A stretch of 64,000 bases of DNA from a virus: the IMG/VR virus record IMGVR_UViG_3300027806_000035, positions 1 through 64,000 of that record; one strand, 5' to 3'. This document shows, one piece after another, positions 41,231-54,748 of this stretch. A program made the position numbers and the translations under genes. Each line of letters starts with the position of its first letter. Position 1 is the first letter of the stretch. Under the pieces are notes generated by a model. It was not told the DNA's origin. It saw nothing but the letters and a program-made list of their open reading frames with translations, and searched no databases.

Positions 41231-44200
41231 TTTTCAATCACCCAGTTTTCGTCAGTGGACAGCCCTCCCCAATTCTGGGACAAGATCAGCCTGCCATTTT
41301 CATCAGTCGGAGTCTCAATGGCATTTGCGATGAATCCGCTGTTTTCGGCCGGATCAATGTCCAGAATTCTGTAGGTCTTGTAGTCGGAGCCGGATTCCTT
41401 GATCACGAAAATGATGCCAGATGGTGAAGCCGTGCCATCTTCGTTGATCGTCAACTCAGATTCCGTGACCTCGCTTTCAAGGATGCCATCCCAGATCATC
41501 GCCTGATAAGTTCCAGGCTCAATGTCGGTGACGGAAATCACAAGGCCATCGCTCTTAACGATGCCAGTCTTGTATTCATTGAAGAATGTCACTTCAACAG
41601 GGACTTGCACATAGTCGCCTGGCTTGATTGGTGCGAGCAGCGAGTCCTGCGTCAACTCCATTGTAATGCCATGTGTTGAAAGCCTGCGAATACGGGCCTT
41701 CATCTTCAGATAGTCAATCAGGTGCTTCTCGTTTGTCGCAAAATCTGATAGATCAAACGACTGGATCGGATCATCCTCCGACGAAAGCGCACCAGCTTCG
41801 CGCAACAGAATCTCGCGCTCAACAGGGAAGATCCCAGGATTCGTGATCGTGCTCAGTTTCCGCTCTTCCCGCCAGCGACCAGAAACCTTGATCGACCTAC
41901 GAGACTCTTCGTCAATCGCCGAGAATGAGAAGCTGCGCATTTGCAGCAGGCCGAATACACCCTTGATGTCAACGGGTGCGTTCCAGTTGGTTCGGTCACC
42001 CTCCACGTACGGGAACATGGGACGCAGCACGTAACGCCCATCAATCTCCATGAAATACAGCAGGTGCTCTTCCGCTTTCTTGGCTACCCATTCCTTGATA
42101 TTCGTCGGGAGATAGACGAGATCACAGAAATACCTGTTGTCGTAGCACCACTGAGCTGATTCACGGAAGCTATCAATGTCAATCTGCTCATCGCTGACCT
42201 GATCGCCGGTTCCGTAGACCGGATTGGTGAACAGCTCAAGAGCGATGTCGGGGAACAGGTGCGTCGGCCCCGGCGTCATGTCATTCAGGAGTCTGCGAGC
42301 CTCTGGATAGCCAGCGTTCGCATAGCCAGAGAGCTGCCCCAGCTGCTGGAATGTGTTTCCAGGGAGGAGGTTCAGGCCGACAATGCCCATGTCCGGGTAG
42401 AGCGGCAGCGTCTCGTTCTGAACGATCTCGGTCACGGAGACGATTTCATGCTCCGGTCCGCCCTCAGCCGTTGAAGAAACCTCAGGGAATACGAATGTTT
42501 CAGCTAGCGCGCCAAATTCATCGACGAACTGCACGCCATCAGTGTATCCATAGCCAAGGTTCCCGTATCCCTGCGCCTGGTCCTTGTGGACGGCTGGCAG
42601 CCGGAACGGATCATCGCCATCGTTGACAACGCCAACGTCACTGCCGTTACCCTCTTTTCCATAAACCTGCAGCACAACTGATTCGTGCGCTCTGGTGATC
42701 AGATTTCCATTCGCCTGCCGCTTATCTTCGATCAGGACGTAGGCGCCAGAAGCGTTACCAGATCTGATCTCCCAGCCAGAAAGCGGCTCAAACTCAATTT
42801 CCCACTGTTCAACGGTTGGGAACTGGAGTCTGACCGTATTGAACTGACTTTGTTGATTGATTCCACGAATGCAATAGCACTCGGGAAAGGTGATCCATTC
42901 TCCAGTGCTGCTGCTTGGTCTGACGCGAATCCTGAAGAACGAGTACCGCATCTGAGCGGTCGTTACCGTTCCAGACGTATAGTTGAATTGCTTGAGCGTT
43001 GATCCCTTGGAGATCGTGTCGCCCCTGTAGTCAAGACATGCCTTGTTATCTGCAGCTCCGTAGGAAATAGTGTCCCTGAAGTTGCACAGATTGTTGATCC
43101 TGATGCCAAGAGTGCTCCTGATGATGATTTCAATCAGGCGCGTCGGCCTTGTGGTCGTGATTGTTGCAATTGAAACCCTGAACAGGTGCGGGAAATTTGT
43201 TGCCGTGTAGCGGTCAATGTTGCTGCCAACGTTCGCATTGACACGGAGGTCGGAAATAGTCGTCAGATCAATGACGCCGGGTCTGACAACGGTGAACGTG
43301 GCTTCAATGCTTTGACCTGGGCGCGGATCTTGTGAGCCAGGATCAGAGAAGTTTGCCTCGCTAGTGAAGACCTCGCCTTCGGGGCTGCGCCCGGTGCATA
43401 CGACAAGAGCCGTGCCGAACTTGTAAAGAGAGCCGATCTGAATTGCGTCGTCCCACTGCTCTTGCTTTCCGGCGATGGCGGAAGCGATGTCAGCGGCTGG
43501 CTCGCTGTAAAGCTCACCCTTATTTAGCGTTGCTTGAACCGTTTCCCTTGAATCAGCGGTTGATTCAACAACGTAAATAGTTGAGGCTGAACTGTAATTG
43601 CCGGAGAATGTCTGGTTGATGAAGTCGACATCGTAGTTTGCTTCAACGTCGGTTTCCTGTTGAACGTTGACGCGGTAGTAAGTTGACGGCTCTTCGTCAT
43701 CGTCAACTGCCCCATTCACGAATGTAATCTTGAATCTTGAATACAGCAGCGCCTTCTTCTGATCGTTCGTCAGCCCGGAAGCGTTGTACTGAAGTCGCGT
43801 ACTGAGTGTTACGCGCTTGCCGGACTGCTGGGTGACGGTGACGATTGGATTCGGTACGACCTGATCACCCGAGTCAAGCCATTGGATACCAGCTTCAAGA
43901 GCCGAGAGGCTTCCACTGAAAGCGGTGGATCTAAGTCCAGTGGTTGAATTGGTTGATCTGTATTCATTTACGGTTGTCCCACTCCCACCAATTCGCTCAA
44001 CCTCAACATTGACATCCCATGCTTGAGCATTGAACGCTTTGCTGAAGTCAGTTTCAACATCGCTGCTCTTGTCAAGAACGTATGTCAGTGTGTTGCCGAT
44101 CGCGCTTGCGTCGCCAGAGATGAAACCAGATCGAGTTGAGTAGACTGCGCGTGTTTTGTCACGTTGCGCCGCTGCTACATCATCAATCTGACAAACAACC

Positions 44201-45084
44201 TTAGCATCGCCATCATCACCCTTTGGAATGAGTTGAGCTTGGTACTGAGCCCTGATGACAGGATTTATACGATAAGCGAGATTGTTGCCGATTGGAGAAT
44301 AAACGCCAAAAGCAGCATTTGAACTGGGTCTGACGACAGAACAGAAGTCACCAGCCCATGCTCTGTCAATAGAGCGAGCTGCAAAAACATCGTCGCCACC
44401 CTGATTCTCAGCATTCCCCGGATCCAGATTTGCAAGTCTGCCGGCAATTCTGTCCTCAGACGTGATTCTGCCGCCATCCGGCCTGAAGTAGATGACGTAC
44501 GAGGATCCTAATTCTGTTCCTGGTCCAATGTTATACGCATTCAGAAGATTATTGCCCAGAGCAAAACCATTAGGGTCAAGTTCAGCAATTCCGCCATCGC
44601 CAGCAAGGAAAACAGCACGGAGTAGTTGCTGACCATTGCTTGTTTGCAGCTGACTCCACAGTAGATCCATGTTGACGCGGATGCCACCGTAGGTTTCGCC
44701 GTCAATCACCTCCTTCAGAGCGAAAACCATCGGCATCGGCTGGCCGATCGCTGCCGGCTGCTGCAGCGAATCGAAGCCCTCCCGAGGGGCGTAGCGGCGC
44801 ACATCGCTGACCGTCTTGCCCAGGCGCTCGCTGCTCTGGATCCGGGCTGGCTCCACCTCCCCAGGCCGGAAGAACTGGGCGATGATCGTCAGCCCCACGG
44901 AGATCGCCGAGGCGACCAGGGAGATCACAGCCAGCGTTCCCAGGGGCTCGCCGGCCACAACGGCTGGTCGAGGCCCTTTGGCAGCCCTCTTGGCAGCCTC
45001 TGCGTAGAACCGCTTCACCTCCTCCGGCCGGATCCCCAAGATGCGACCGAGGCGATAGTGCATCGGCAGGAGATGAGGCTTCAC
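41227..45084 (-). CDS. Central tail fibre / baseplate hub (lambda J-like)
   Basis: About 1285 aa; LQQPA.IG.P.P.VF..GG.RVN..LLWSQ; GTG start overlaps upstream stop. Confidence 0.75.
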   Translation of the reverse strand: MKPHLLPMHYRLGRILGIRPEEVKRFYAEAAKRAAKGPRPAVVAGEPLGTLAVISLVASAISVGLTIIAQFFRPGEVEPARIQSSERLGKTVSDVRRYAPREGFDSLQQPAAIGQPMPMVFALKEVIDGETYGGIRVNMDLLWSQLQTSNGQQLLRAVFLAGDGGIAELDPNGFALGNNLLNAYNIGPGTELGSSYVIYFRPDGGRITSEDRIAGRLANLDPGNAENQGGDDVFAARSIDRAWAGDFCSVVRPSSNAAFGVYSPIGNNLAYRINPVIRAQYQAQLIPKGDDGDAKVVCQIDDVAAAQRDKTRAVYSTRSGFISGDASAIGNTLTYVLDKSSDVETDFSKAFNAQAWDVNVEVERIGGSGTTVNEYRSTNSTTGLRSTAFSGSLSALEAGIQWLDSGDQVVPNPIVTVTQQSGKRVTLSTRLQYNASGLTNDQKKALLYSRFKITFVNGAVDDDEEPSTYYRVNVQQETDVEANYDVDFINQTFSGNYSSASTIYVVESTADSRETVQATLNKGELYSEPAADIASAIAGKQEQWDDAIQIGSLYKFGTALVVCTGRSPEGEVFTSEANFSDPGSQDPRPGQSIEATFTVVRPGVIDLTTISDLRVNANVGSNIDRYTATNFPHLFRVSIATITTTRPTRLIEIIIRSTLGIRINNLCNFRDTISYGAADNKACLDYRGDTISKGSTLKQFNYTSGTVTTAQMRYSFFRIRVRPSSSTGEWITFPECYCIRGINQQSQFNTVRLQFPTVEQWEIEFEPLSGWEIRSGNASGAYVLIEDKRQANGNLITRAHESVVLQVYGKEGNGSDVGVVNDGDDPFRLPAVHKDQAQGYGNLGYGYTDGVQFVDEFGALAETFVFPEVSSTAEGGPEHEIVSVTEIVQNETLPLYPDMGIVGLNLLPGNTFQQLGQLSGYANAGYPEARRLLNDMTPGPTHLFPDIALELFTNPVYGTGDQVSDEQIDIDSFRESAQWCYDNRYFCDLVYLPTNIKEWVAKKAEEHLLYFMEIDGRYVLRPMFPYVEGDRTNWNAPVDIKGVFGLLQMRSFSFSAIDEESRRSIKVSGRWREERKLSTITNPGIFPVEREILLREAGALSSEDDPIQSFDLSDFATNEKHLIDYLKMKARIRRLSTHGITMELTQDSLLAPIKPGDYVQVPVEVTFFNEYKTGIVKSDGLVISVTDIEPGTYQAMIWDGILESEVTESELTINEDGTASPSGIIFVIKESGSDYKTYRILDIDPAENSGFIANAIETPTDENGRLILSQNWGGLSTDENWVIEK

Positions 45085-45488
45085 TTTACAAAACGGCGAA
45101 AGTTGAACTTTGGCAGTCCGGGAGTTGTAAGAGGAAGCCAAACAACACCTTTCCTTGTGTGAATTGTAACGACACCAAGATTGCCGCTATTTTCAAGTAC
45201 CGTAGAGATCCCGAGCTTTGGGTGTCCGCCGGCTCCCCTGTTCCGCGTCATTGCTACACAGCCCTGCTCAACAACATCAGTTGGACAGGTGTGATGATTC
45301 CAAGCCGTCTCCAGTGAACCCCAGAGTCCAGCAGCGGCCATGTCCATCCAACGAGGATCAATCTCTGGCCTGTAGATTCCGGCTTCATCGAGAAGGGTGA
45401 AACAGAGGAGCAAGCAATCTGCGGCTTTTCCTTCTTTCGGGTCAGCCCAGAACTCATGCTTCAGTCCAAGATACTGATGAAGGCTCAT
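45081..45488 (-). CDS. NlpC/P60-like tail tip assembly protein
   Basis: YLGL.H..ADP..G.AADC; position between the L-like and J-like genes. Confidence 0.7.
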   Translation of the reverse strand: MSLHQYLGLKHEFWADPKEGKAADCLLLCFTLLDEAGIYRPEIDPRWMDMAAAGLWGSLETAWNHHTCPTDVVEQGCVAMTRNRGAGGHPKLGISTVLENSGNLGVVTIHTRKGVVWLPLTTPGLPKFNFRRFVK

Positions 45489-45973
45489 ACGGAAATGGTT
45501 CCAGATGTTGGCAGCGCTCCCACAAGCGACTGTGAAAGCGGTCTACCACCAACTGTAGCGTTGACAGTATCAAGTGGACTGGCAAGCTGAAGAACAGATT
45601 GACCCGGCCTGCCCATCTCAACCGCACCCTCAACCCTGCAGGACCACAGCATCTTGGTCAGCTGCGTAAGTTCTTGATCGGTTTCAGTGTCAATCTCTAC
45701 TGAAGTTACCTCAACCAGCCACTTACTGGAGTCCGCTTGCCAGAAGATGTTTTGGACAAGGGTGTTGGCTGGACATACGATCGCACCCCTGCTGCGTTCT
45801 CCGCCCTGCTTGCCGCCACCACCAGAAACGCCAAGAGGGGCAAAGTCGTAATCAACTCCACCGTAAGTGCGCGTTTCGTTAATGAAATAGTTTTGGTACG
45901 CATAGGGGAGGTAGCCCCCTCCCCCGCGTTCCTTGAAGCGGATGTAGCTGACAATTGCGAATTCCCCTTTCAC
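45485..45973 (-). CDS. Minor tail protein (lambda L-like)
   Basis: YQNYF..Y.FAP..L.L.SPLD.V..VGALP.SG. Confidence 0.7.
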   Translation of the reverse strand: MKGEFAIVSYIRFKERGGGGYLPYAYQNYFINETRTYGGVDYDFAPLGVSGGGGKQGGERSRGAIVCPANTLVQNIFWQADSSKWLVEVTSVEIDTETDQELTQLTKMLWSCRVEGAVEMGRPGQSVLQLASPLDTVNATVGGRPLSQSLVGALPTSGTISV

Positions 45974-45977
45974 TGAA

Positions 45978-46010
45978 TCAGAGCCCCAGGCGCTTACGTG
46001 TCTTCATGCT
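45978..46010 (-). repeat. Displaced copy of tape-measure 3' end (SMKTRKRLGL-stop) = predicted TnpB guide
   Basis: AGC ATG AAG ACA CGT AAG CGC CTG GGG CTC TGA directly after the right-end TCAA; same peptide as 47348-47380. Confidence 0.9.
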
Positions 46011-46170
46011 TTGACTTCCAGCCACCATACAGATGGTAGCCTCCTTCTACGCTGTGCATGGGAATGCCTCAGCGATCGGGTGGGTTGACGCTTCACAGCC
46101 TGCCGCCACCGAAAGGGTGGACTGATGCACGGCTCCACGCCCGTTTTGACTCTCCGCCAGTCCGGCGGCG
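45991..46170 (-). ncRNA. Predicted omegaRNA (reRNA): scaffold overlapping tnpB 3' end plus guide
   Basis: AAACGGGCGTGGAG..TGAAGCGTCAACC.., hairpin GCTACCAT-CTGT-ATGGTGGC, then GGAAGTCAA; boundaries approximate. Confidence 0.65.
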
Positions 46171-47255
46171 AGGATGTTCAAAGCAGCGTTGATGTCGCGG
46201 TCGTGAACCGTTCCGCAACTCGGGCACTGCCACTCCCGAATCGACAGCTCTTTCTTGCCGTCGTGATGGCCGCAAGCTGAGCAGACCTGACTGGTAGGGA
46301 GCCATCGGTTGATGACAACCACCTGCCTGCCATATTGCTCAGCCTTGGACTCCAGCAGAGCCCTGAACTGCCGCCAACCCGCATCGGCAATCGAGCGGGC
46401 CAGCTTCTTGTTCTTCAGCATCCCCGAAACGTTCAGGTCTTCCAGCACCACCGTTTGGTTTTCACGGATGATGCGGGTCGAGAGCTGATGCAGGAAGTCG
46501 AGGCGCCGATCAGCAGCCTTGGCGTGCAGCTTGGCTACCCTGCGTCTAGCGAAAGCCAGACGGTTAGAGCCCTTTTCCTTGTGCTTCAGGTTGCGCTGCA
46601 GCCGCCGCAGCCGCTTAAGCGCCGAGCGCAGAAACCTCGGCGGAGCAATCTTTTTGCCATCTGAGGTAACGGCGAGGGATGTCAAGCCCAAGTCTATGCC
46701 AATCACTTTGCCGTTTTTCGGCATTTGACTTGGCTCGACTTCTACAACAAAGCTTGCGAAATAACGTCCGCTGGAATCACGAATAATTGTGACACTGGTT
46801 GGCGATGACGGCAGTGAGCGACTCCAAATAATTGGCACTGAACCAATTTTTGCAAGAATCAAACGATTATTTTTTACGCGAAATGCATTGGATGTAAAAC
46901 GAGCTGACTGGGTGCCGCACTTTTTCTTGAAGCGCGGCGGGCCAACCCCACTGCCCCTGCGCTTTCCTTTTAGGCTATTCCACCAATTACGATAGGCTCT
47001 GTCAAGGTCGCGCACAGACTGCTGAAGTATCGTATTACTTGGTTCGGCAAGCCACTTTCTTTCAGGAGTCTGCTTCGCTTGAGTAATGCAAAGCTTGGCT
47101 AAAATTGGATAGGTAACTTTTTGACCAGCACTGTATAGCTCGCGGCTTTTGGCTAGAGCGTCATTCCATACAACGCGAGCGCAGCCAAAGGCCTTGCCGA
47201 TCGCACCTATTTGGTGCGGGTGTGGATACAGGCGAAACCGGTAGCGTCGCTTCAT
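46047..47255 (-). CDS. tnpB: RNA-guided endonuclease TnpB
   Basis: [10 protein letters not shown]; RuvC GIDLG / LEDL / DRDINAA intact; CSAC..CPSC zinc finger. Confidence 0.95.
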
Positions 47256-47260
47256 CAGTC

Positions 47261-47270
47261 AATTATACCA
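47261..47270 (-). promoter_or_regulatory. Extended -10 promoter for tnpB (probably leaderless)
   Basis: TGGTATAAT, 6 nt upstream of the tnpB ATG. Confidence 0.65.
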
Positions 47271-47347
47271 CGCGGGGCCACTCCTACCCACCCCCGGCTT
47301 CCCGTCGCCTTGGCGTATGGTCGCTTAATTGCCCGACAAGTATATAA

Positions 47348-50300
47348 CTACAGGCCGAGTCGTTTTCTGGTCTTCATGCTATCGGCAAGTTCACGAATCG
47401 TCTGGTTCCGGGCCACCTTAGCAGTACGGGCATTAGATGCCTCAAGCTGCTCGGGAGTGACGAAATCGTACTCGTTGACGCGAGTGGTTTCGTACTTGAT
47501 CGGAGGCAGTTCTTTCGGGCTGCTGGTGACACGCTCCAGTCGGTCGATCTCCCTGGTCGTTTCACTCCGCTGATACGGAACGGCCCGACCATAGTTGCCG
47601 GTGTAGATGGTGTCACTAGATTCACCATCACCGCTCTCCATGCTGCTCGCGGCGCGACGGGTATAGCGGCCGATCGAAGGGGCACTGCCGCCCTTGTCGT
47701 CAAGGCCGGGGACGTACAGCTCGTCGTTGGGAATGATCGTGCCTGGGCGGTCGGGAACCCACAGCTCAGGGCCGTTCTCGCCGATGATCGCCGGGTCGTA
47801 GGGATCAGGGCGACCGCCCGAGGCATAGCCAGGCAGGCCGAGGTTGCCGAGGTTGAGCATTTCGCCGGTAAAGCCGGGGAGCGACGACTTCGGCTTGCTG
47901 CCAAACAGACCTGACAGTCCACCGCCAGCGCCAAACATTCCAGTGATAGAGCTGATGGATCCGAAGATTGAAGCTGCACCCATCAGGGTGTTGTAAGCCC
48001 CGCCCTTGCGGATCATCTGAGCGCCGCCAACGCCCATCGCGATGCTGCTGATCGCTTGCAGGCCGATGCCAACTGTTTTCTGGAACTTGGTGACAGAATC
48101 TGACATCTGAGTGCCGAGATCCTGAACGCTATCTGTCGCTTGCGCGGCTGCCTGGCCAAGCTGACCCAGCGATTCGGCCGTCTGATTTCCAGCTGCAGTA
48201 GCGGGACCATAGGCAGCGCCAACAGCCTCGCGCATTGCATCGTAAGCCTCAAGCATTCTCCTAGCATTTTCCTCAGCATTGAACTGAGGAGCTGGCTGAA
48301 CCTGGGACACAACAGAGCCAATTTCGGAAAGAAGCTTGCTGGTGATCGCAGGGTTTAGGCCGGGCTCTCTGCCTGGGCCGTGGAAGAAGTTCTGCCCCTC
48401 GGCTCGCAGGAAGTCGCCCTGCATCATATTGCCGTACTGGCTAACGCCTTTGAAATACAAGCGGCCATTGATGTCCTTGATCGACTGCTCAAGAAGTGCG
48501 GGATCAAGAAGCTCGGCCTTGACCTTGTTGAACAGGTCGGCGCCGTAACGATTTGGATTGACGACTTGGGCGCGACTCAGGCCAAAATTTGGTGCATACT
48601 GGCCGGCTTGGGTTACGACATCCACCAGATTCGATGGATACTGACCGGAGCGTGAGCGGCTGAGGATGTTCGCGAAAACATCAGTTCTGCCCAGCGGATC
48701 GGATCCACCATATTCGCCAATTGCAGTATTGACTGCAGCCGCAATTTCTTCATCCGTAAGACGCAGCGCCTCCTTGATGCTTCTGCCGGTCATCGGCAGA
48801 TCAGGCCCGCCAACGCCCGTGAACTGTCCAGTTGCTCCACTGGACTGAGCGTCCCGATACCACTGACCGCTCTTGGGGGGCTCCGTTGCCGGCGACCTGC
48901 CGCCTGGACCTGGGACAATCCCGTTCGCGGGAGCCGTGGCCGGGGCCGGAGTGGCGCCGCGAGCCGCCGCAGCCGCAGTCTCAGCCTTTTTGACAAGTTC
49001 AATGGCAGCCTGAAGAATCTTGTCGGTATTGTCCTTGACAGCAGTAATTGGCTGAAGCAGGGGGTTCTGCTCAGGTTTGATGCCTAAGACATCGGAGAGA
49101 TTCTTGAACAGCTGATCCTGCAGGGGGCGCAGCGTAAACTCAAGGAGGACATCAAGAGTCCGATCTGCAACGCCTTCAGCGAAACGCTGAACAGATTCCA
49201 GCAGGTTCCCGCCTTTCAGCAGTTCTTTATTGAGCTGGATAAACGAGTCGGTCCAGCCACTTGCAATATCCCTAAGTCCATTAAGAACCTTGAGCTTGGC
49301 ATTCAAGTTGTCAAGCGCTTTTGCGTTTCTGAGGATTTCCTCCTCCTGTCTTGGGTTGATGCCAAGCCCGCCACGGCTGTTGATGATTTGCAGCCACTTA
49401 TCATATTCGCTGACAGGGAGCAGGAGCGCAGAAATCTCACCCCTCGCCTGAGTAATGGAGTTGCTGAGCTGGTCGTTTGACTGGGTGTAAAACTCAATTG
49501 TTGGCCGCAGCTTTTCAAACTCGACAGTAACTTTTTCCGCAGTGGCAATTAAGCCGAGCAGTTCGGGTGTCAGCTTGAAATCTGGCCGCCTTGCAAGAGA
49601 GCTGACAAGGCTTGTGTAAGAGCCTTGAATGACGCCGATGGCAATTGAGAAATCGTCTGCGACAAGGCCAAGTGCCTTCCTGGATCTAGTAAGAGAGTCG
49701 TCAAGCTCTTTGAATGGACCGGTGGCAAGATCGCTTATGCGACCAATAAATTCATTGAAGTTGCCAGCCTGACCAGAATTGACAAGTGAAGTTTCAAGGT
49801 CGAGCAGGGTCTTCTGAAGCTGATCCCCGCGTGCCACGGCCTGCGTTACGCCAGCAGTAGAAACACTCCGAGTGGAGACAGACGGAATCTCCCTGAGCTT
49901 TGGAGGAGCCTTTGTTGTCTCAATCGCTTTCAGGTTTTCGCCCGCGAGCTTCAGATTTTCTGTGATGTTGTCGAAGATTGTTTGATTTGCCGTGAGTACG
50001 TCTTGATAGACCTGCTTGCCAGGATTCTCCTTCGCATTGACCTTTGCGCTTTCAAGGAAGCTGCTCTGCCTTGCCTGCATGACAAGGAGTTCGTTCTTGA
50101 TAACCTCTGCCTTAAGCGAGGCAATTTTCTTTTCGGCTTCAAATGTATTCAGGGCCGCATCTTCGTTTCTGCGTGCAACGCTTCTGTTGATCTCCTGAAT
50201 TTTTTCGGCGGTGCTGATATTCAGGTCCGAAACCCTCTTGGCAACCTCGGCCTTGTACTTTTCAAGCTCAACCTGTTGGTTGCTAATCGCAATCTCAAAC

Positions 50301-53300
50301 TGCTTACGGCGTTGCTCGATCTGATCCTGGGCCGAAAGCTGAGCGCCAAGGTAGGTGGTTACAGCGTCCGCAAGGCTTTGCGCAAGCTCGTCGCCAGCCA
50401 GCTCATTGCGAACCTCAAGCGCAGCATTCTTAAACTGCTGCTCCCTGATCTGACCCTGCTTGACAAGGATCTCAAGCTCTTTCTGGGCGTTTTCTTGACG
50501 AAGCTGGGAGATCCTGTCTTCAACGCCACGGCGAATATCCTCGATCTGCTTTTCGTAGTCACGACGCAGCTCAAAGGACTGACGATCAAGATCTTCCTGC
50601 TCGCGCTTGATGGCGTTGGCTTGTTGCTTGAAGCCCTTCAGGATGTCCGCTCCTTCGTTCCGCTTATTGAATACTTCGAGATCGCGTTGAGCTGTGTCGC
50701 GGCGGGTTTCTGCGTCCCTGATCGCCTTGTCGCGTTGCTCCTGTGGCTTGAGCTGTGGCGCAGGAGTGGATCTTACAAGTCCAGCGGTGATTTCAGCCAA
50801 ATCTTTAGTCGGAATCCCAAGAATTGAACCAGCTCCACCGCCTCCAAGCGGGCGGCCAATCAACCTCTCAAGAAGTCCAGATCCCCTTGGTGCGCCTGCT
50901 TTTTCAGCGGCAGCCTGCAACTGCCTGTTTGCAGCCGCTCTAGCTTCTGGTGTGGCTGCAGCAAAGGCATTCTCAAATCTTTTTTCCGTCCCGCTTCTCT
51001 CCAGTCCTGATGCAATAGCATTCAAGATGTCAGTAAGCGGCCCAGCAACAAGAAGCTGGATCTGTACGCCAAGGTCGGCCATTGCACGCTTCAGGCGATC
51101 ACCAGCATCAGCGGCTTCACGAAGCTTCGTAGCTCCATCGACCCCGAGCTTGTTATTCAGTTCACCCTGGATAATCGAGTAGGCAGCGGTCTTATTCCCA
51201 GCCTCAATCAGATTGCCAATCAGCTTTTCCTGGCCACGGCTTGCAAGCAGGCCGGAATCCTTGATCTGCTCAAAGTTGCCGACCAGATCACGCAGCATGT
51301 TGCCGGTGTCCTGGGTCGCCTGCATCAGCATGTCCACCTGGGAGCCGATCGCCGTGCCAGCAAGCGACAGGCCGAAGCCCAGCGTGCCGCCGGCCAGGCC
51401 ACCGAAGAAGCCGCCCAGACCGCCACCAGCAGCGGCTCCGGCGCCCTGACCGAACAGGAGGGGGAAGGCGCCACCGATCAGGCCTTCCCCGACCGCCTGG
51501 CCGCCTCTCTGGCCGAACCTGCGGGTCAGGAAGTCAGCCCCGGTATCCCGGCGAGCAATCTGGTCGTCAACCTTGTTCAGAACTTTGGTCAGCTGATCAA
51601 AGCTCGCGTCCGTCATCTTCACGCCTTCGCGTGTTTCAGACAGCGCCTGAGACAGAAGCTGCAGCTGCTTGATGCTGGCGCCTGACATATCAGCCAGATC
51701 CTTCAGGCCAAGAAGCTGATCAGCATTGCCGCGAGCAGCATTTACGCGGCCCTCAAAGTCGCCAGGATCCGGTCCGGCAGGAGGGGCTGGAGGATTCGGC
51801 CCACGACCGCCGCCGCCAGCAGACCGAACAGCGGAAGAGGTGAAATTGGCAGCAGATTGAACGCTGAGCGCAAAGTCGCGAATCGGCTTTGTAGCGGAAT
51901 TCAGTGCTTGCTGCAATTTTTCAAGCGGGGATCCAATAGCGGCACCGGCTTCGCTACCAAGGGTCTGCGTCTTACCAAAAGCAAAGATTGACGAAAGCGG
52001 TGATCCAATGCCGCGCCCCTGAATCTGATTGGCGGAAAACAGGGGATTAGAAGGTGGAGCGCTCTGAAGAGTTGGTAGCTTACCGCGAATTCTTTGGTCG
52101 CGACTCATCAGAATACCAGGGTTCAGAATTGATGACTCGCCCGCTTGTCCGGCAACCGGAGACATGGGTGCCGTTACGAACCTGGCAGAGCTGAACTTGT
52201 TGGCACTCTTGACGAAGGCGTCATCAATCTGCTTTTCAAGAAGCCCCGGAAGGTTCCTGAAAATTCGCTCAAGCTTCATTTCCGGGAATACGTCCTGGAA
52301 CGTACCCCTTGCGCTCGACTCCCTCAGTATTTCGGTTGGGAAGTTCTGGAGCCCAACCGCATCAATTCGCCTTCTGTATTTAGCCGAATCAATTGTCAGG
52401 TCAGCAATGGATTGCGAAAGTGTTCCATAGTTAGCTCCAAGGCTCGGACGCTTCACCGCAAAATCAAACTGACCTGCGATTCCAGTCTGCGGATTTCTAG
52501 TAGGAAGGTTTAGGGAGGCAGTCGCTATGCCCTCTCTTGCCGTTTTAACGGCTTTCCCAACTGCATTCGCGCCAGCACCAAAGGCCTTGCTGAAGGCCGC
52601 TTCAATAGCAGAAGTACCCTGCTCAAGCCTGCTAGTAGTGGCATTGATGATGTCACTGATTAGCATAAGAATGAACTTGGGAGGGCTGTTCCTGCCAAAG
52701 ACCTTATTGATCGCTTTTGTTGCAGCAGACGCAAACTTGGTTGCCGCCGCAGCAGCGCTGGATGAACCGCCGGCAAGCTTGTCGGCAAAAGTGCTTACAA
52801 CGCTCGCGCCAGTTTCAGCGGCGCCAGAGACTGCGCCCTTGAGGCCGCCAGCACCAGTTCCTGTAGCTTTCCCGCCAACAGAAGCGTTGAACGCACCGAT
52901 GATGTTGCTCAGGGCTTGCTCGCCACTGCGACCGCCACGGAAGACCTTGGCGGCAGTGTCTGCACGTCCGAGATCACCAAGAATCGAGGTCAGGGTTCCG
53001 GTATCGCGCTGCTGCCCACGGCCAAGCCTTTTTGCAAGCTGCTCGGATGCTTTTGACTCAGCCTGCGCATTGGCCGCTCTTTGCTTCTCTAGCGCAAGCA
53101 GTTGCCTTGTTCCGTTTAGCTCTTCATCAAGAATATCCAGGCTCTTCGCGGAAATCTCAAACGTATCAGCCTTTGCGGCATTGAGTGTATTTTGGAGCTT
53201 GACAAGGGTGTCACCAATCTCAACGCCTTTTGCCTGCGCTCCGGCAAGTTTCTCCTGCAAAAGGAGGCCAGAGGCGAGGATGTTAGCGAGTCGCTTTGGC

Positions 53301-54748
53301 GCATCAATTGGTGAGACGTCAGTGGTTCGGATATTTGAAGGCCTGATTTGTCCAGCCTGGCCGGCTCCAGCCTTGGTGGACACTCCACTGGAAAGCTCCT
53401 CCACCTGAGCTAATGCACTTCTCCAGTTTATTCCCTTTGCTGCAAGTTTCTGCGCCTCAGTTACTGGCGTTGGCGTTCCACGTCTATTCAGGCGCTCAAG
53501 CGACATTCGCTGGCGGTCAATTTCAGCTGTCTGACGCTTCGAGGCCGTTAGATCCCTTTCGGCAAGCGAGGAAGTTGCCTTGTCAAGCTTTTGGCGAAGC
53601 TCAAGTTTTTGGTTTTGACTGAGAAATGCTTGGTCAACACGAGTCTCAAGAGCCGCAATTCGATCAAGCTGCAGTTCAATCTTATCATAGTATCCCTGCT
53701 TCTTGATGATTGATTTCGGATCATCAAGCCTGGAGGCAGGGCCAAGCTGCGGCTGAATCTTCATACTTTGGCCACGCAGGCCAAATCCGCTCATTTCCTC
53801 GCGAACAGATGCAATCCGCTCCTCAAGAGCCCGGTACTCATTGGAGATAACAGGAACAAGAGAGCGCAGTCTTTCTAGGTAGCCAAGGTATGAGTCCATT
53901 GCGGCCTCGCTTCTTGTCACCGTGTCACCCATTGCAAGCGCGGAAGCAATGAGCTTGCGGGAGCCGGCAAGATTGGCTTCTGATGTACCTTGACCAAAAT
54001 TTTGACGCTGAGCCTGAGGAGATAAACCAAAGGCGATAGCCCGAAAGCGTTGCTGTTCGGCTTCTGCGAGCTTCTTGTTCGCCCCCTCTACGGCAACACT
54101 GAATCTATTGAAATCGGCAGACGCAATTTTAACGTTATTTGCAACCAGCGAAAGAGCGGATGCCTGCTCTTTGAGCTGACTTATGCTTGCGTCAAGGCCT
54201 ACGTCTTTGCCAAGCCCGCCAGTTACGAGTTTCTTGCGGAGATCTCCAATGCGGAGATAGGCATCAGCAAGGCCCTGAAGCGCGTTTACGCTTGCCTGGT
54301 TTTTCATGGCAAGGCCAAGGGCTCTGTTAAGCCCGATCGCCCCGGTCTGGGCCTCCCTCTGCCTCTGTGTTAGCTGGGCTGTTTTGCTGTTGAGTTCATC
54401 AATAGCGCTGGCCGCGTCAAGAATATCTTGCTGTAACTTTTTATAGGTTTTTGTTTCTGGATTTTTCAGTCTTGACAGTCTTTGCTGCGCCTTTTCGATT
54501 TTATCAAAGTTTTTTTGAATTTCAGCTCCAGCCCCAGCAATACCCTTTCCAGCATCGTCCGAAATACGGTTAAGCGCAGTCATGCTTGACTGCAGCTTTT
54601 CCACATCACGCACAGCTCTTGACGCGGATACGTCCAGCGGGGAGCTATTTAGCCTATTAACAATGTCGTCAAGCTTGCTAACTCTTTCAATCAGCCTGTC
54701 AACAGCTGAGCGGCCAGTTACCAGAAGGTCAATTGAAGCGCCAGCCAT
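47348..54748 (-). CDS. Tape measure protein with SleB/Hydrolase_2-like peptidoglycan hydrolase domain
   Basis: 2466 aa, Ala/Gln-rich coiled coil, Gly-rich TM-like stretch, GE..V..I.SR..YP..VV.Q.GQY, GENGPEL.VP; lies between chaperone and tail-tip genes. Confidence 0.92.
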   Translation of the reverse strand: MAGASIDLLVTGRSAVDRLIERVSKLDDIVNRLNSSPLDVSASRAVRDVEKLQSSMTALNRISDDAGKGIAGAGAEIQKNFDKIEKAQQRLSRLKNPETKTYKKLQQDILDAASAIDELNSKTAQLTQRQREAQTGAIGLNRALGLAMKNQASVNALQGLADAYLRIGDLRKKLVTGGLGKDVGLDASISQLKEQASALSLVANNVKIASADFNRFSVAVEGANKKLAEAEQQRFRAIAFGLSPQAQRQNFGQGTSEANLAGSRKLIASALAMGDTVTRSEAAMDSYLGYLERLRSLVPVISNEYRALEERIASVREEMSGFGLRGQSMKIQPQLGPASRLDDPKSIIKKQGYYDKIELQLDRIAALETRVDQAFLSQNQKLELRQKLDKATSSLAERDLTASKRQTAEIDRQRMSLERLNRRGTPTPVTEAQKLAAKGINWRSALAQVEELSSGVSTKAGAGQAGQIRPSNIRTTDVSPIDAPKRLANILASGLLLQEKLAGAQAKGVEIGDTLVKLQNTLNAAKADTFEISAKSLDILDEELNGTRQLLALEKQRAANAQAESKASEQLAKRLGRGQQRDTGTLTSILGDLGRADTAAKVFRGGRSGEQALSNIIGAFNASVGGKATGTGAGGLKGAVSGAAETGASVVSTFADKLAGGSSSAAAAATKFASAATKAINKVFGRNSPPKFILMLISDIINATTSRLEQGTSAIEAAFSKAFGAGANAVGKAVKTAREGIATASLNLPTRNPQTGIAGQFDFAVKRPSLGANYGTLSQSIADLTIDSAKYRRRIDAVGLQNFPTEILRESSARGTFQDVFPEMKLERIFRNLPGLLEKQIDDAFVKSANKFSSARFVTAPMSPVAGQAGESSILNPGILMSRDQRIRGKLPTLQSAPPSNPLFSANQIQGRGIGSPLSSIFAFGKTQTLGSEAGAAIGSPLEKLQQALNSATKPIRDFALSVQSAANFTSSAVRSAGGGGRGPNPPAPPAGPDPGDFEGRVNAARGNADQLLGLKDLADMSGASIKQLQLLSQALSETREGVKMTDASFDQLTKVLNKVDDQIARRDTGADFLTRRFGQRGGQAVGEGLIGGAFPLLFGQGAGAAAGGGLGGFFGGLAGGTLGFGLSLAGTAIGSQVDMLMQATQDTGNMLRDLVGNFEQIKDSGLLASRGQEKLIGNLIEAGNKTAAYSIIQGELNNKLGVDGATKLREAADAGDRLKRAMADLGVQIQLLVAGPLTDILNAIASGLERSGTEKRFENAFAAATPEARAAANRQLQAAAEKAGAPRGSGLLERLIGRPLGGGGAGSILGIPTKDLAEITAGLVRSTPAPQLKPQEQRDKAIRDAETRRDTAQRDLEVFNKRNEGADILKGFKQQANAIKREQEDLDRQSFELRRDYEKQIEDIRRGVEDRISQLRQENAQKELEILVKQGQIREQQFKNAALEVRNELAGDELAQSLADAVTTYLGAQLSAQDQIEQRRKQFEIAISNQQVELEKYKAEVAKRVSDLNISTAEKIQEINRSVARRNEDAALNTFEAEKKIASLKAEVIKNELLVMQARQSSFLESAKVNAKENPGKQVYQDVLTANQTIFDNITENLKLAGENLKAIETTKAPPKLREIPSVSTRSVSTAGVTQAVARGDQLQKTLLDLETSLVNSGQAGNFNEFIGRISDLATGPFKELDDSLTRSRKALGLVADDFSIAIGVIQGSYTSLVSSLARRPDFKLTPELLGLIATAEKVTVEFEKLRPTIEFYTQSNDQLSNSITQARGEISALLLPVSEYDKWLQIINSRGGLGINPRQEEEILRNAKALDNLNAKLKVLNGLRDIASGWTDSFIQLNKELLKGGNLLESVQRFAEGVADRTLDVLLEFTLRPLQDQLFKNLSDVLGIKPEQNPLLQPITAVKDNTDKILQAAIELVKKAETAAAAARGATPAPATAPANGIVPGPGGRSPATEPPKSGQWYRDAQSSGATGQFTGVGGPDLPMTGRSIKEALRLTDEEIAAAVNTAIGEYGGSDPLGRTDVFANILSRSRSGQYPSNLVDVVTQAGQYAPNFGLSRAQVVNPNRYGADLFNKVKAELLDPALLEQSIKDINGRLYFKGVSQYGNMMQGDFLRAEGQNFFHGPGREPGLNPAITSKLLSEIGSVVSQVQPAPQFNAEENARRMLEAYDAMREAVGAAYGPATAAGNQTAESLGQLGQAAAQATDSVQDLGTQMSDSVTKFQKTVGIGLQAISSIAMGVGGAQMIRKGGAYNTLMGAASIFGSISSITGMFGAGGGLSGLFGSKPKSSLPGFTGEMLNLGNLGLPGYASGGRPDPYDPAIIGENGPELWVPDRPGTIIPNDELYVPGLDDKGGSAPSIGRYTRRAASSMESGDGESSDTIYTGNYGRAVPYQRSETTREIDRLERVTSSPKELPPIKYETTRVNEYDFVTPEQLEASNARTAKVARNQTIRELADSMKTRKRLGL

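Follow-up and report, generated by a model that had tools for sequence, protein, structure and literature searches.

Introduction

TnpB, the ancestor of Cas12, is the "restorative homing" nuclease of IS605 transposons; in these elements the left end parts the target-adjacent motif (TAM) from the target, and additional self-protection is unnecessary. Here we describe a tnpB cassette of a freshwater (lake) cyanophage that lies at the 3' end of a tape-measure-like gene, ahead of the next tail gene, and patches the gene that it interrupts. The cassette was studied in a stretch of 64,000 nucleotides (nt), hereafter the window, which is positions 1 to 64,000 of the 86-kb IMG/VR virus record IMGVR_UViG_3300027806_000035. 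At its own insertion site, position -4 counted back from the guide match carries a C, and the pentamer at the TAM position reads CCGAT. Our preferred reading, which we hold tentatively and at slightly under an even chance, is that this C is a facultative and probably beneficial TAM-escape allele that segregates at a TnpB homing site and is not required for carriage of the cassette.

The closest described nuclease is ISDra2 TnpB with its omega-RNA (right-end RNA, reRNA) from an IS200/IS605 element (Karvelis 2021, PMC8612924; Nakagawa 2023, PMC10097598; PDB 8BF8, 8EXA and 8H1J). The phage cassette shares with it the protein architecture, the RuvC triad, a guide RNA formed from the 3' end of tnpB and the right end, a guide just past the right end, and a pentanucleotide TAM that ends in TGAT directly 5' of the target. 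Judged by sequence, its nuclease and RNA are an ordinary ISDra2-type TnpB and omega-RNA. The canonical ISDra2 element is self-immune because the left end, and not the target, follows the TAM. In contrast, the phage cassette has neither tnpA nor a left end, and behind the TAM position stands a copy of the target in recoded form, so that an 11-nt seed survives there and the TAM itself becomes the discriminator. Further differences from ISDra2 are that position -5 takes C as well as T and that the residues corresponding to K76/F77 are N/T.

In its arrangement the cassette also resembles the intronless homing genes SegF and SegB of phage T4 (reviewed in PMC13565253). As in those systems, the nuclease gene is flanked by conserved phage genes, it is predicted to cut the allele of related co-infecting phages while its own allele is spared by substitutions in a conserved gene, and near-identical cassettes occur in phages with diverged flanks. 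Unlike SegF and SegB, recognition would depend on an RNA guide plus a TAM instead of on a protein, and the protecting substitutions fall into two classes: the recoded block, which moves together with the cassette, and one TAM base, which stays behind. The cassette appears to behave as free-standing homing-endonuclease cassettes of phages do, with the difference that an RNA guides recognition. The 2026 review lists "non-restorative" homing between co-infecting phages only as a category (PMC13565253), and our literature search found no paper on patch-type TnpB cassettes or on TAM loss at resident sites.

A further parallel exists with the CRISPR arrays of types I, II and V, in which the template locus of the guide escapes cutting as the docking motif is missing. 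In CRISPR arrays the absence of the motif is built into every repeat, whereas here it depends on one polymorphic coding base in one carrier haplotype only. In a cassette that has lost the transposon ends and patches the interrupted gene, the TAM would act as a discriminator of self and non-self, as the protospacer-adjacent motif does for CRISPR arrays. If the T-to-C change was selected, self-immunity based on a motif would have arisen naturally in a system that predates CRISPR, and the change would serve as a readable marker of the conflict between this gene-drive-like cassette and the phages that it targets. For a TnpB that is so far uncharacterised, the data moreover supply a concrete TAM (YTGAT) together with natural alleles of the target and escape types.

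The resident target site and its guide match

The elements that make up the resident site and the guide are the following.

47348-54748, minus strand: tape-measure-like gene, 2466 amino acids (aa); its 3' end is the target
47381-47385, minus strand: resident pentamer CCGAT at the TAM position, with the -4 base at 47384 (C, third base of the Ala codon GCC)
47370-47380, minus strand: 11 nt that match guide positions 1-11 perfectly; codons beginning Ser-Met-Lys-Thr
47348-47369, minus strand: recoded patch with the final tape-measure codons and the stop; guide mismatches at positions 12, 13, 15 and 18
45991-46010, minus strand: guide (20 nt shown), which is the displaced original 3' end of the tape-measure gene

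A sequence-only reading of the window had described an 11-nt guide match preceded by CCGAT, encoding Ala-Asp, and this was confirmed. On the minus strand, the tape-measure-like open reading frame (ORF) contains the Ala and Asp codons GCC (47384-47386) and GAT (47381-47383). The 11 nt that follow GAT, AGCATGAAGAC (47370-47380), are identical to the first 11 nt past the right end of the cassette (46000-46010). This 11-mer occurs exactly twice in the window against an expectation of 0.05 copies, and two matches were obtained in none of 100 shuffles. Both copies encode the peptide SMKTRKRLGL followed by a stop codon, which argues that the repeat did not arise by chance. Beyond the first 11 nt, every codon is spelled differently in the patch and in the displaced original. 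Set against the guide of 20 nt, the resident site is matched at positions 1-11, 14, 16, 17, 19 and 20 and mismatched at positions 12, 13, 15 and 18. The cassette patch restores the last 10 tape-measure codons, and the displaced original codons with their stop extend to 45978.

The position of the guide was fixed by comparison with more than 30 related copies, four of them on viral contigs and the rest in genomes of freshwater Prochlorococcaceae (picocyanobacteria; hereafter host copies), whose TnpBs are ~80% identical to the phage TnpB. All share a common scaffold up to the motif GTCAA and have completely different sequence beyond it. This places the right end at 46011-46015 and guide position 1 at 46010.

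The TAM of the family and its probable loss at the resident site

At 19 independent left-end junctions from host and viral copies, the base at -5 was C (10 junctions), T (8) or G (1), followed by TGAT in 19 of 19 and then by the left end. The second source of information was a set of seven cassette-free alleles of the phage site (L002-L007 and L021), in which a GCN GAT sequence runs directly into guide-matching codons and then into the next gene. Six of the seven read GCT GAT and thus contain CTGAT. As the cassette-free alleles have TGAT directly 5' of the guide match, TGAT is derived from the target in the phage lineage. The resident CCGAT departs from this pattern only by a synonymous T-to-C change at -4 (47384), where T is otherwise invariant in the junctions. 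The idea of a TGAT-like TAM, put forward earlier from the letters of the window, is therefore supported by both the 19 junctions and six of the seven cassette-free alleles, and a TAM of the form YTGAT is strongly supported by these alignments. The Ala codon of the element-free relatives, which the same reading had singled out for inspection, is GCT in these six and GCC in the seventh, L002.

In ISDra2 TnpB, residues T123 and F77 make contact with the methyl group on the -4 T, and the exchange T123A abolishes cleavage (PMC10097598). A TCGAT TAM yielded less than 1% indels with ISDra2 TnpB, compared to 5-15% for TTGAT (PMC11536444). In our alignment, T123 is retained in the phage protein as T121. 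By analogy with ISDra2 and in view of the junctions, CCGAT is very probably not a working TAM.

Cleavage and binding differ in how much of the guide they require. ISDra2 TnpB needs ~12 matched bases, and double mismatches within positions 1-12 abolish cutting (PMC10097598). TnpB loaded with a 10-nt guide binds without cutting (PMC13507860), while Ymu1 TnpB passes through a long-lived binding state of ~7 base pairs (bp) and fails to unwind DNA with mismatches within positions 1-4 (bioRxiv 10.64898/2026.01.09.698545). Given binding at such short matches, an 11-nt seed behind CTGAT should be bound, inside the late operon and upstream of tnpB and the tail genes. Prevention of this binding is a plausible benefit of removing the TAM.

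We propose the following mechanism. The patch would keep the tape-measure gene whole, with the displaced original codons past the right end serving as guide, and cassette-free relatives that carry CTGAT plus the guide match would be the targets. At the sole site that still offers the guide an 11-nt seed, the C at -4 would remove the invariant T. The TnpB complex would then fail to dock at the resident site, and no partial R-loop, roadblock to late transcription or residual cutting would arise. Loss of the TAM would in this way add to the protection given by the distal recoding. Taking the sequence comparison and the ISDra2 analogy together, docking on the resident site likely does not occur.

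Candidate targets are found among the seven cassette-free alleles. L021, the one further cassette-free allele that was added by a metagenome scan, has CTGAT and matches 20 of 20 guide positions, i.e., it represents a perfect natural target, and L004 and L006 have CTGAT with 19 of 20 positions matched. These three look cuttable, and the remaining four alleles are predicted to be resistant to this guide, L002 through CCGAT and the others through mismatches (L003 at positions 9 and 12, L005 at 4, 9, 12 and 15, and L007 at 3, 4 and 6). Seven alleles are too few to tell escape from ordinary divergence. L002 is the closest cassette-free relative, with 93% aa identity across the 250 C-terminal tape-measure residues and ~90% nt identity in the flanks. 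A search with the tape-measure C-terminus returned no new close alleles, and pattern scans of IMG/VR for other carriers, using the junction, the own-type right-end hairpin and the recoded patch, returned known cassette-free contigs or nothing, in a collection from which near-identical records may be missing.

Transfer of the cassette between diverged phages

A second carrier haplotype was recovered from run X14 as a 3036-nt contig that extends from inside tnpB through the leader and the patch into the tape-measure gene; the evidence on this haplotype is contig data from this one run. Between the X14 contig and the window there are 5 differences over the 945 positions of the cassette part (46432-47376), compared to 15 over 133 positions in the adjoining tape-measure gene (Fisher p = 1e-10), which corresponds to a divergence of 0.5% in the cassette and 11% in the flank (window positions 46432-47509). 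The contrast still reaches 6e-9 with all four unlisted differences assigned to the cassette. The switch between the two levels of divergence is located at most 8 nt from the first recoded base, and the join is not a k-mer chimera because only 7 nt lie between the flank variant and the recoded bases. On the right side, recipient-type sequence begins at most 35 nt from the right end, as seen only through a 1-nt indel at 45974-45976. A contig from a further run, X15, ends at 47389, with position 47384 outside it.

This comparison provides direct sequence evidence that cassette and patch were transferred together between phages with 11-14% divergence, and this precise transfer would stand even if the C at -4 were neutral. 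Junctions that hug the cassette are as expected for the repair of a break beside the TAM. The switch at the start of the patch assigns the TAM codon to the flank of the recipient, outside the cassette. As the recipient keeps its own TAM codon, knockout of the TAM is not built into the cassette and must either arise or pre-exist in each recipient.

Was the TAM change selected?

The base at -4 is a segregating variant: C is present in the window's carrier and in one cassette-free relative, and T in the other carrier and in six cassette-free alleles. Whether selection has acted on it is the point at which our preferred reading, a facultative escape allele that is probably of benefit to any genome that has it, has to be weighed against a neutral synonymous polymorphism. 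On the neutral account the TAM is broken and was never selected, the C either pre-existed, shared with L002, or drifted, and the patch alone confers full self-immunity. Several observations favour this account or weigh against ours. The closest cassette-free relative, L002, also has GCC (CCGAT; L002:2951-2996), so that the C may be neutral or older than the cassette. In the X14 carrier, position 47384 is an A on the plus strand, giving GCT and an intact CTGAT, which means that a working TAM can be tolerated next to the patch, at least in combination with the position-4 difference of that haplotype. The C at -4 occurs in one of the two carrier haplotypes and in one of the seven cassette-free alleles, and it shows no association with carrier status (Fisher p = 0.42). 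The phage departs from a consensus shared by at least 6 of the 7 alleles at 3 of 32 nearby, comparable third codon positions (~9%), so the chance of one such change by drift is ~10% per site; as ~6 synonymous changes in TAM plus seed would all have seemed protective, drift alone gives a fair chance of one. The tape-measure gene uses GCT for Ala 96 times and GCC 87 times, and on these counts codon bias was rejected as the cause of GCC. The resident mismatches at positions 12 and 13 probably already prevent cleavage even with a TAM, given the behaviour of ISDra2 towards double mismatches (PMC10097598). Finally, the TAM-contact residues K76 and F77 of ISDra2 are replaced by N74 and T75 in the phage protein, and the tolerance of ISDra2 for C at -4 is for this reason not simply transferable. 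Neutrality has costs of its own, however. A recipient that was already CCGAT could not have been entered by TnpB-cut homing, so that ordinary recombination or low-level cutting would be needed, and where 11 nt of seed adjoin a working TAM, TnpB would be expected to bind stably, at some cost inside an essential late operon. We regard the neutral account as the main rival, though as rather less likely than not. Of the earlier proposal that a silent TAM knockout forms a selected second layer of self-immunity, a silent change away from the TAM is well supported, while its selection is called into question by GCC in L002, GCT in X14, the lack of association and the level of drift.

Stronger and different roles for the site fare less well. 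If CCGAT were still accepted, TnpB might bind the 11-nt seed without cutting and regulate transcription into tnpB and the downstream genes. Short matches do permit binding without cleavage (PMC13507860; bioRxiv 10.64898/2026.01.09.698545), the guide, as read from the sequence, pairs with the strand that serves as template for the tape-measure operon, and with two TAM-contact residues unlike those of ISDra2 the specificity at -4/-3 could be looser. On the other hand, T occupies -4 in all 19 insertions and in six of the seven phage targets, ISDra2 TnpB has hardly any activity on TCGAT (PMC11536444), and the TAM state differs between the carriers, unlike a conserved regulatory site. The site moreover lies ~100 nt upstream of the -10 box, within the tape-measure ORF, and the tnpB promoter would not be occluded. 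The binding-without-cutting alternative raised in the sequence-only reading thus conflicts both with the broken TAM and with the position of the site, and we consider it very improbable. Nor does it seem at all likely that a second layer is obligatory, i.e., that every viable carrier must break docking at its resident site, via the TAM as here or via the seed as at position 4 in X14. Both carrier haplotypes are indeed one docking-relevant base off CTGAT plus an 11-nt match to this guide, and mismatches in positions 1-4 abolish unwinding by Ymu1 TnpB (bioRxiv 10.64898/2026.01.09.698545). Yet the position-4 difference of X14 is a difference from the guide of this window; its base is simply the native Leu codon of the recipient lineage, as in L005, and only two carrier haplotypes are known. 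A broader reading, an arms race legible in natural populations in which docking-blocking variants occur in carriers, where they would prevent self-docking on the patched allele (C at -4; position 4 in X14), as well as in non-carriers and the TAM knockout is one selected escape route, strikes us as unlikely, though less so than these two. With the same reserve, the non-carrier resistance alleles on such a view would be L002 with CCGAT and L003, L005 and L007 with seed changes, the escape routes having been recruited independently.

Architecture of the cassette and its TnpB

All genes of the region lie on the minus strand in the order tape-measure-like gene, tnpB, 162-aa gene. The remaining features are listed below.

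47256-47347, minus strand: cassette leader, 92 nt, unrelated to the left end of the host insertion sequence (IS)
46047-47255, minus strand: tnpB, 402 aa, ISDra2-type, RuvC triad D188/E272/D354 intact
46011-46190, minus strand: omega-RNA scaffold, 5' limit approximate; overlaps the 3' end of tnpB and terminates at GTCAA (46011-46015)
45485-45973, minus strand: next phage gene, 162 aa, no Pfam family; right-hand anchor for finding cassette-free relatives

The TnpB protein matches the Pfam domains HTH_OrfB_IS605 (PF12323, 1.2e-15), OrfB_IS605 (PF01385, 3.9e-31) and Cas12f1-like_TNB (PF07282, 3.7e-26), and it aligns to ISDra2 TnpB (8BF8/8EXA/8H1J) with an E-value of 1.7e-75. Residues D188, E272 and D354 align with the RuvC triad D191, E278 and D361 of ISDra2 and are invariant in the alignment of homologues. 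An extended -10 element, TGGTATAAT (47262-47270, minus strand), was read from the sequence 6 nt ahead of the tnpB ATG, and the tnpB mRNA is probably leaderless. A consensus promoter scan called no full -35/-10 promoter for tnpB. The host IS copies show a similar arrangement of -10 and ATG.

The host copies are complete IS605-type elements with a divergent Y1 tnpA and a left end that contains a hairpin. In the phage, the left end is replaced by a 33-nt recoded gene tail and the 92-nt unrelated leader. The left-end motif of the host copies was not found within the window, and PF01797 (Y1 TnpA) was unmatched across the 86-kb phage record. The phage element is not a complete IS200/IS605 transposon, with tnpA and the left end both absent. 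A left-end boundary drawn from the comparison of L010 with L011 was rejected, since the common upstream sequence of the host copies proved to be the divergent tnpA; the true host left end lies ~480 nt farther upstream than this shared sequence had implied.

The fold of the omega-RNA scaffold is conserved, with 49 predicted pairs that are mostly invariant. In its last hairpin (46019-46042, minus strand), the stem differs completely from that of all host copies and is nevertheless fully complementary: the 8-bp stem and 4-nt loop are kept, and the change relative to the host copies is fully compensated. An Rfam scan of positions 44000-49000 returned no omega-RNA family and a single chance match to a long non-coding RNA.

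Additional observations on related elements and occurrence

In many of the host IS copies the divergent tnpA contains an in-frame TAG (e.g., L024:720-1200 and other loci; G002:C68:181293-181656), and their Y1_Tnp matches are split into frames of ~83 aa, one of them reported with "1 TAG" inside. These tnpA genes could be pseudogenes, or there could be some read-through. At the host loci L036, L041 and L045 the left end and the TAM are kept, and an unrelated gene lies ahead of tnpB instead of tnpA.

A third cassette haplotype is represented by P0001, a TnpB with 99% identity on a contig of 25,962 nt. It has only five aa differences, all within residues 382-401, where tnpB overlaps the omega-RNA, and those at 390, 398 and 401 correspond to the host-IS residue. 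This pattern suggests recombination or a divergence confined to the RNA scaffold.

A distant search of the GenBank phage collection gave no relatives of the flanks, with matches solely internal to tnpB, to actinophage transposases. The distant tape-measure genes L089 (2400-2450) and L090 (33% identity) end in TRRRLAI-stop, compared to TRKRLGL-stop here. A conserved short basic tail at the C-terminus of the tape-measure protein may be the reason why the cassette must restore it. On comparison of these distant relatives, L089 and L090 were rejected as the origin of the recoded patch.

The exact cassette-bearing haplotype was present at full length in ten runs (2017 and 2019), each with a different study code, and several of these runs are labelled "fungus metagenome"; all ten are marked as possible sources of the DNA studied here. 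Parts of the haplotype were also present in freshwater and bioreactor runs from 2023-2024.

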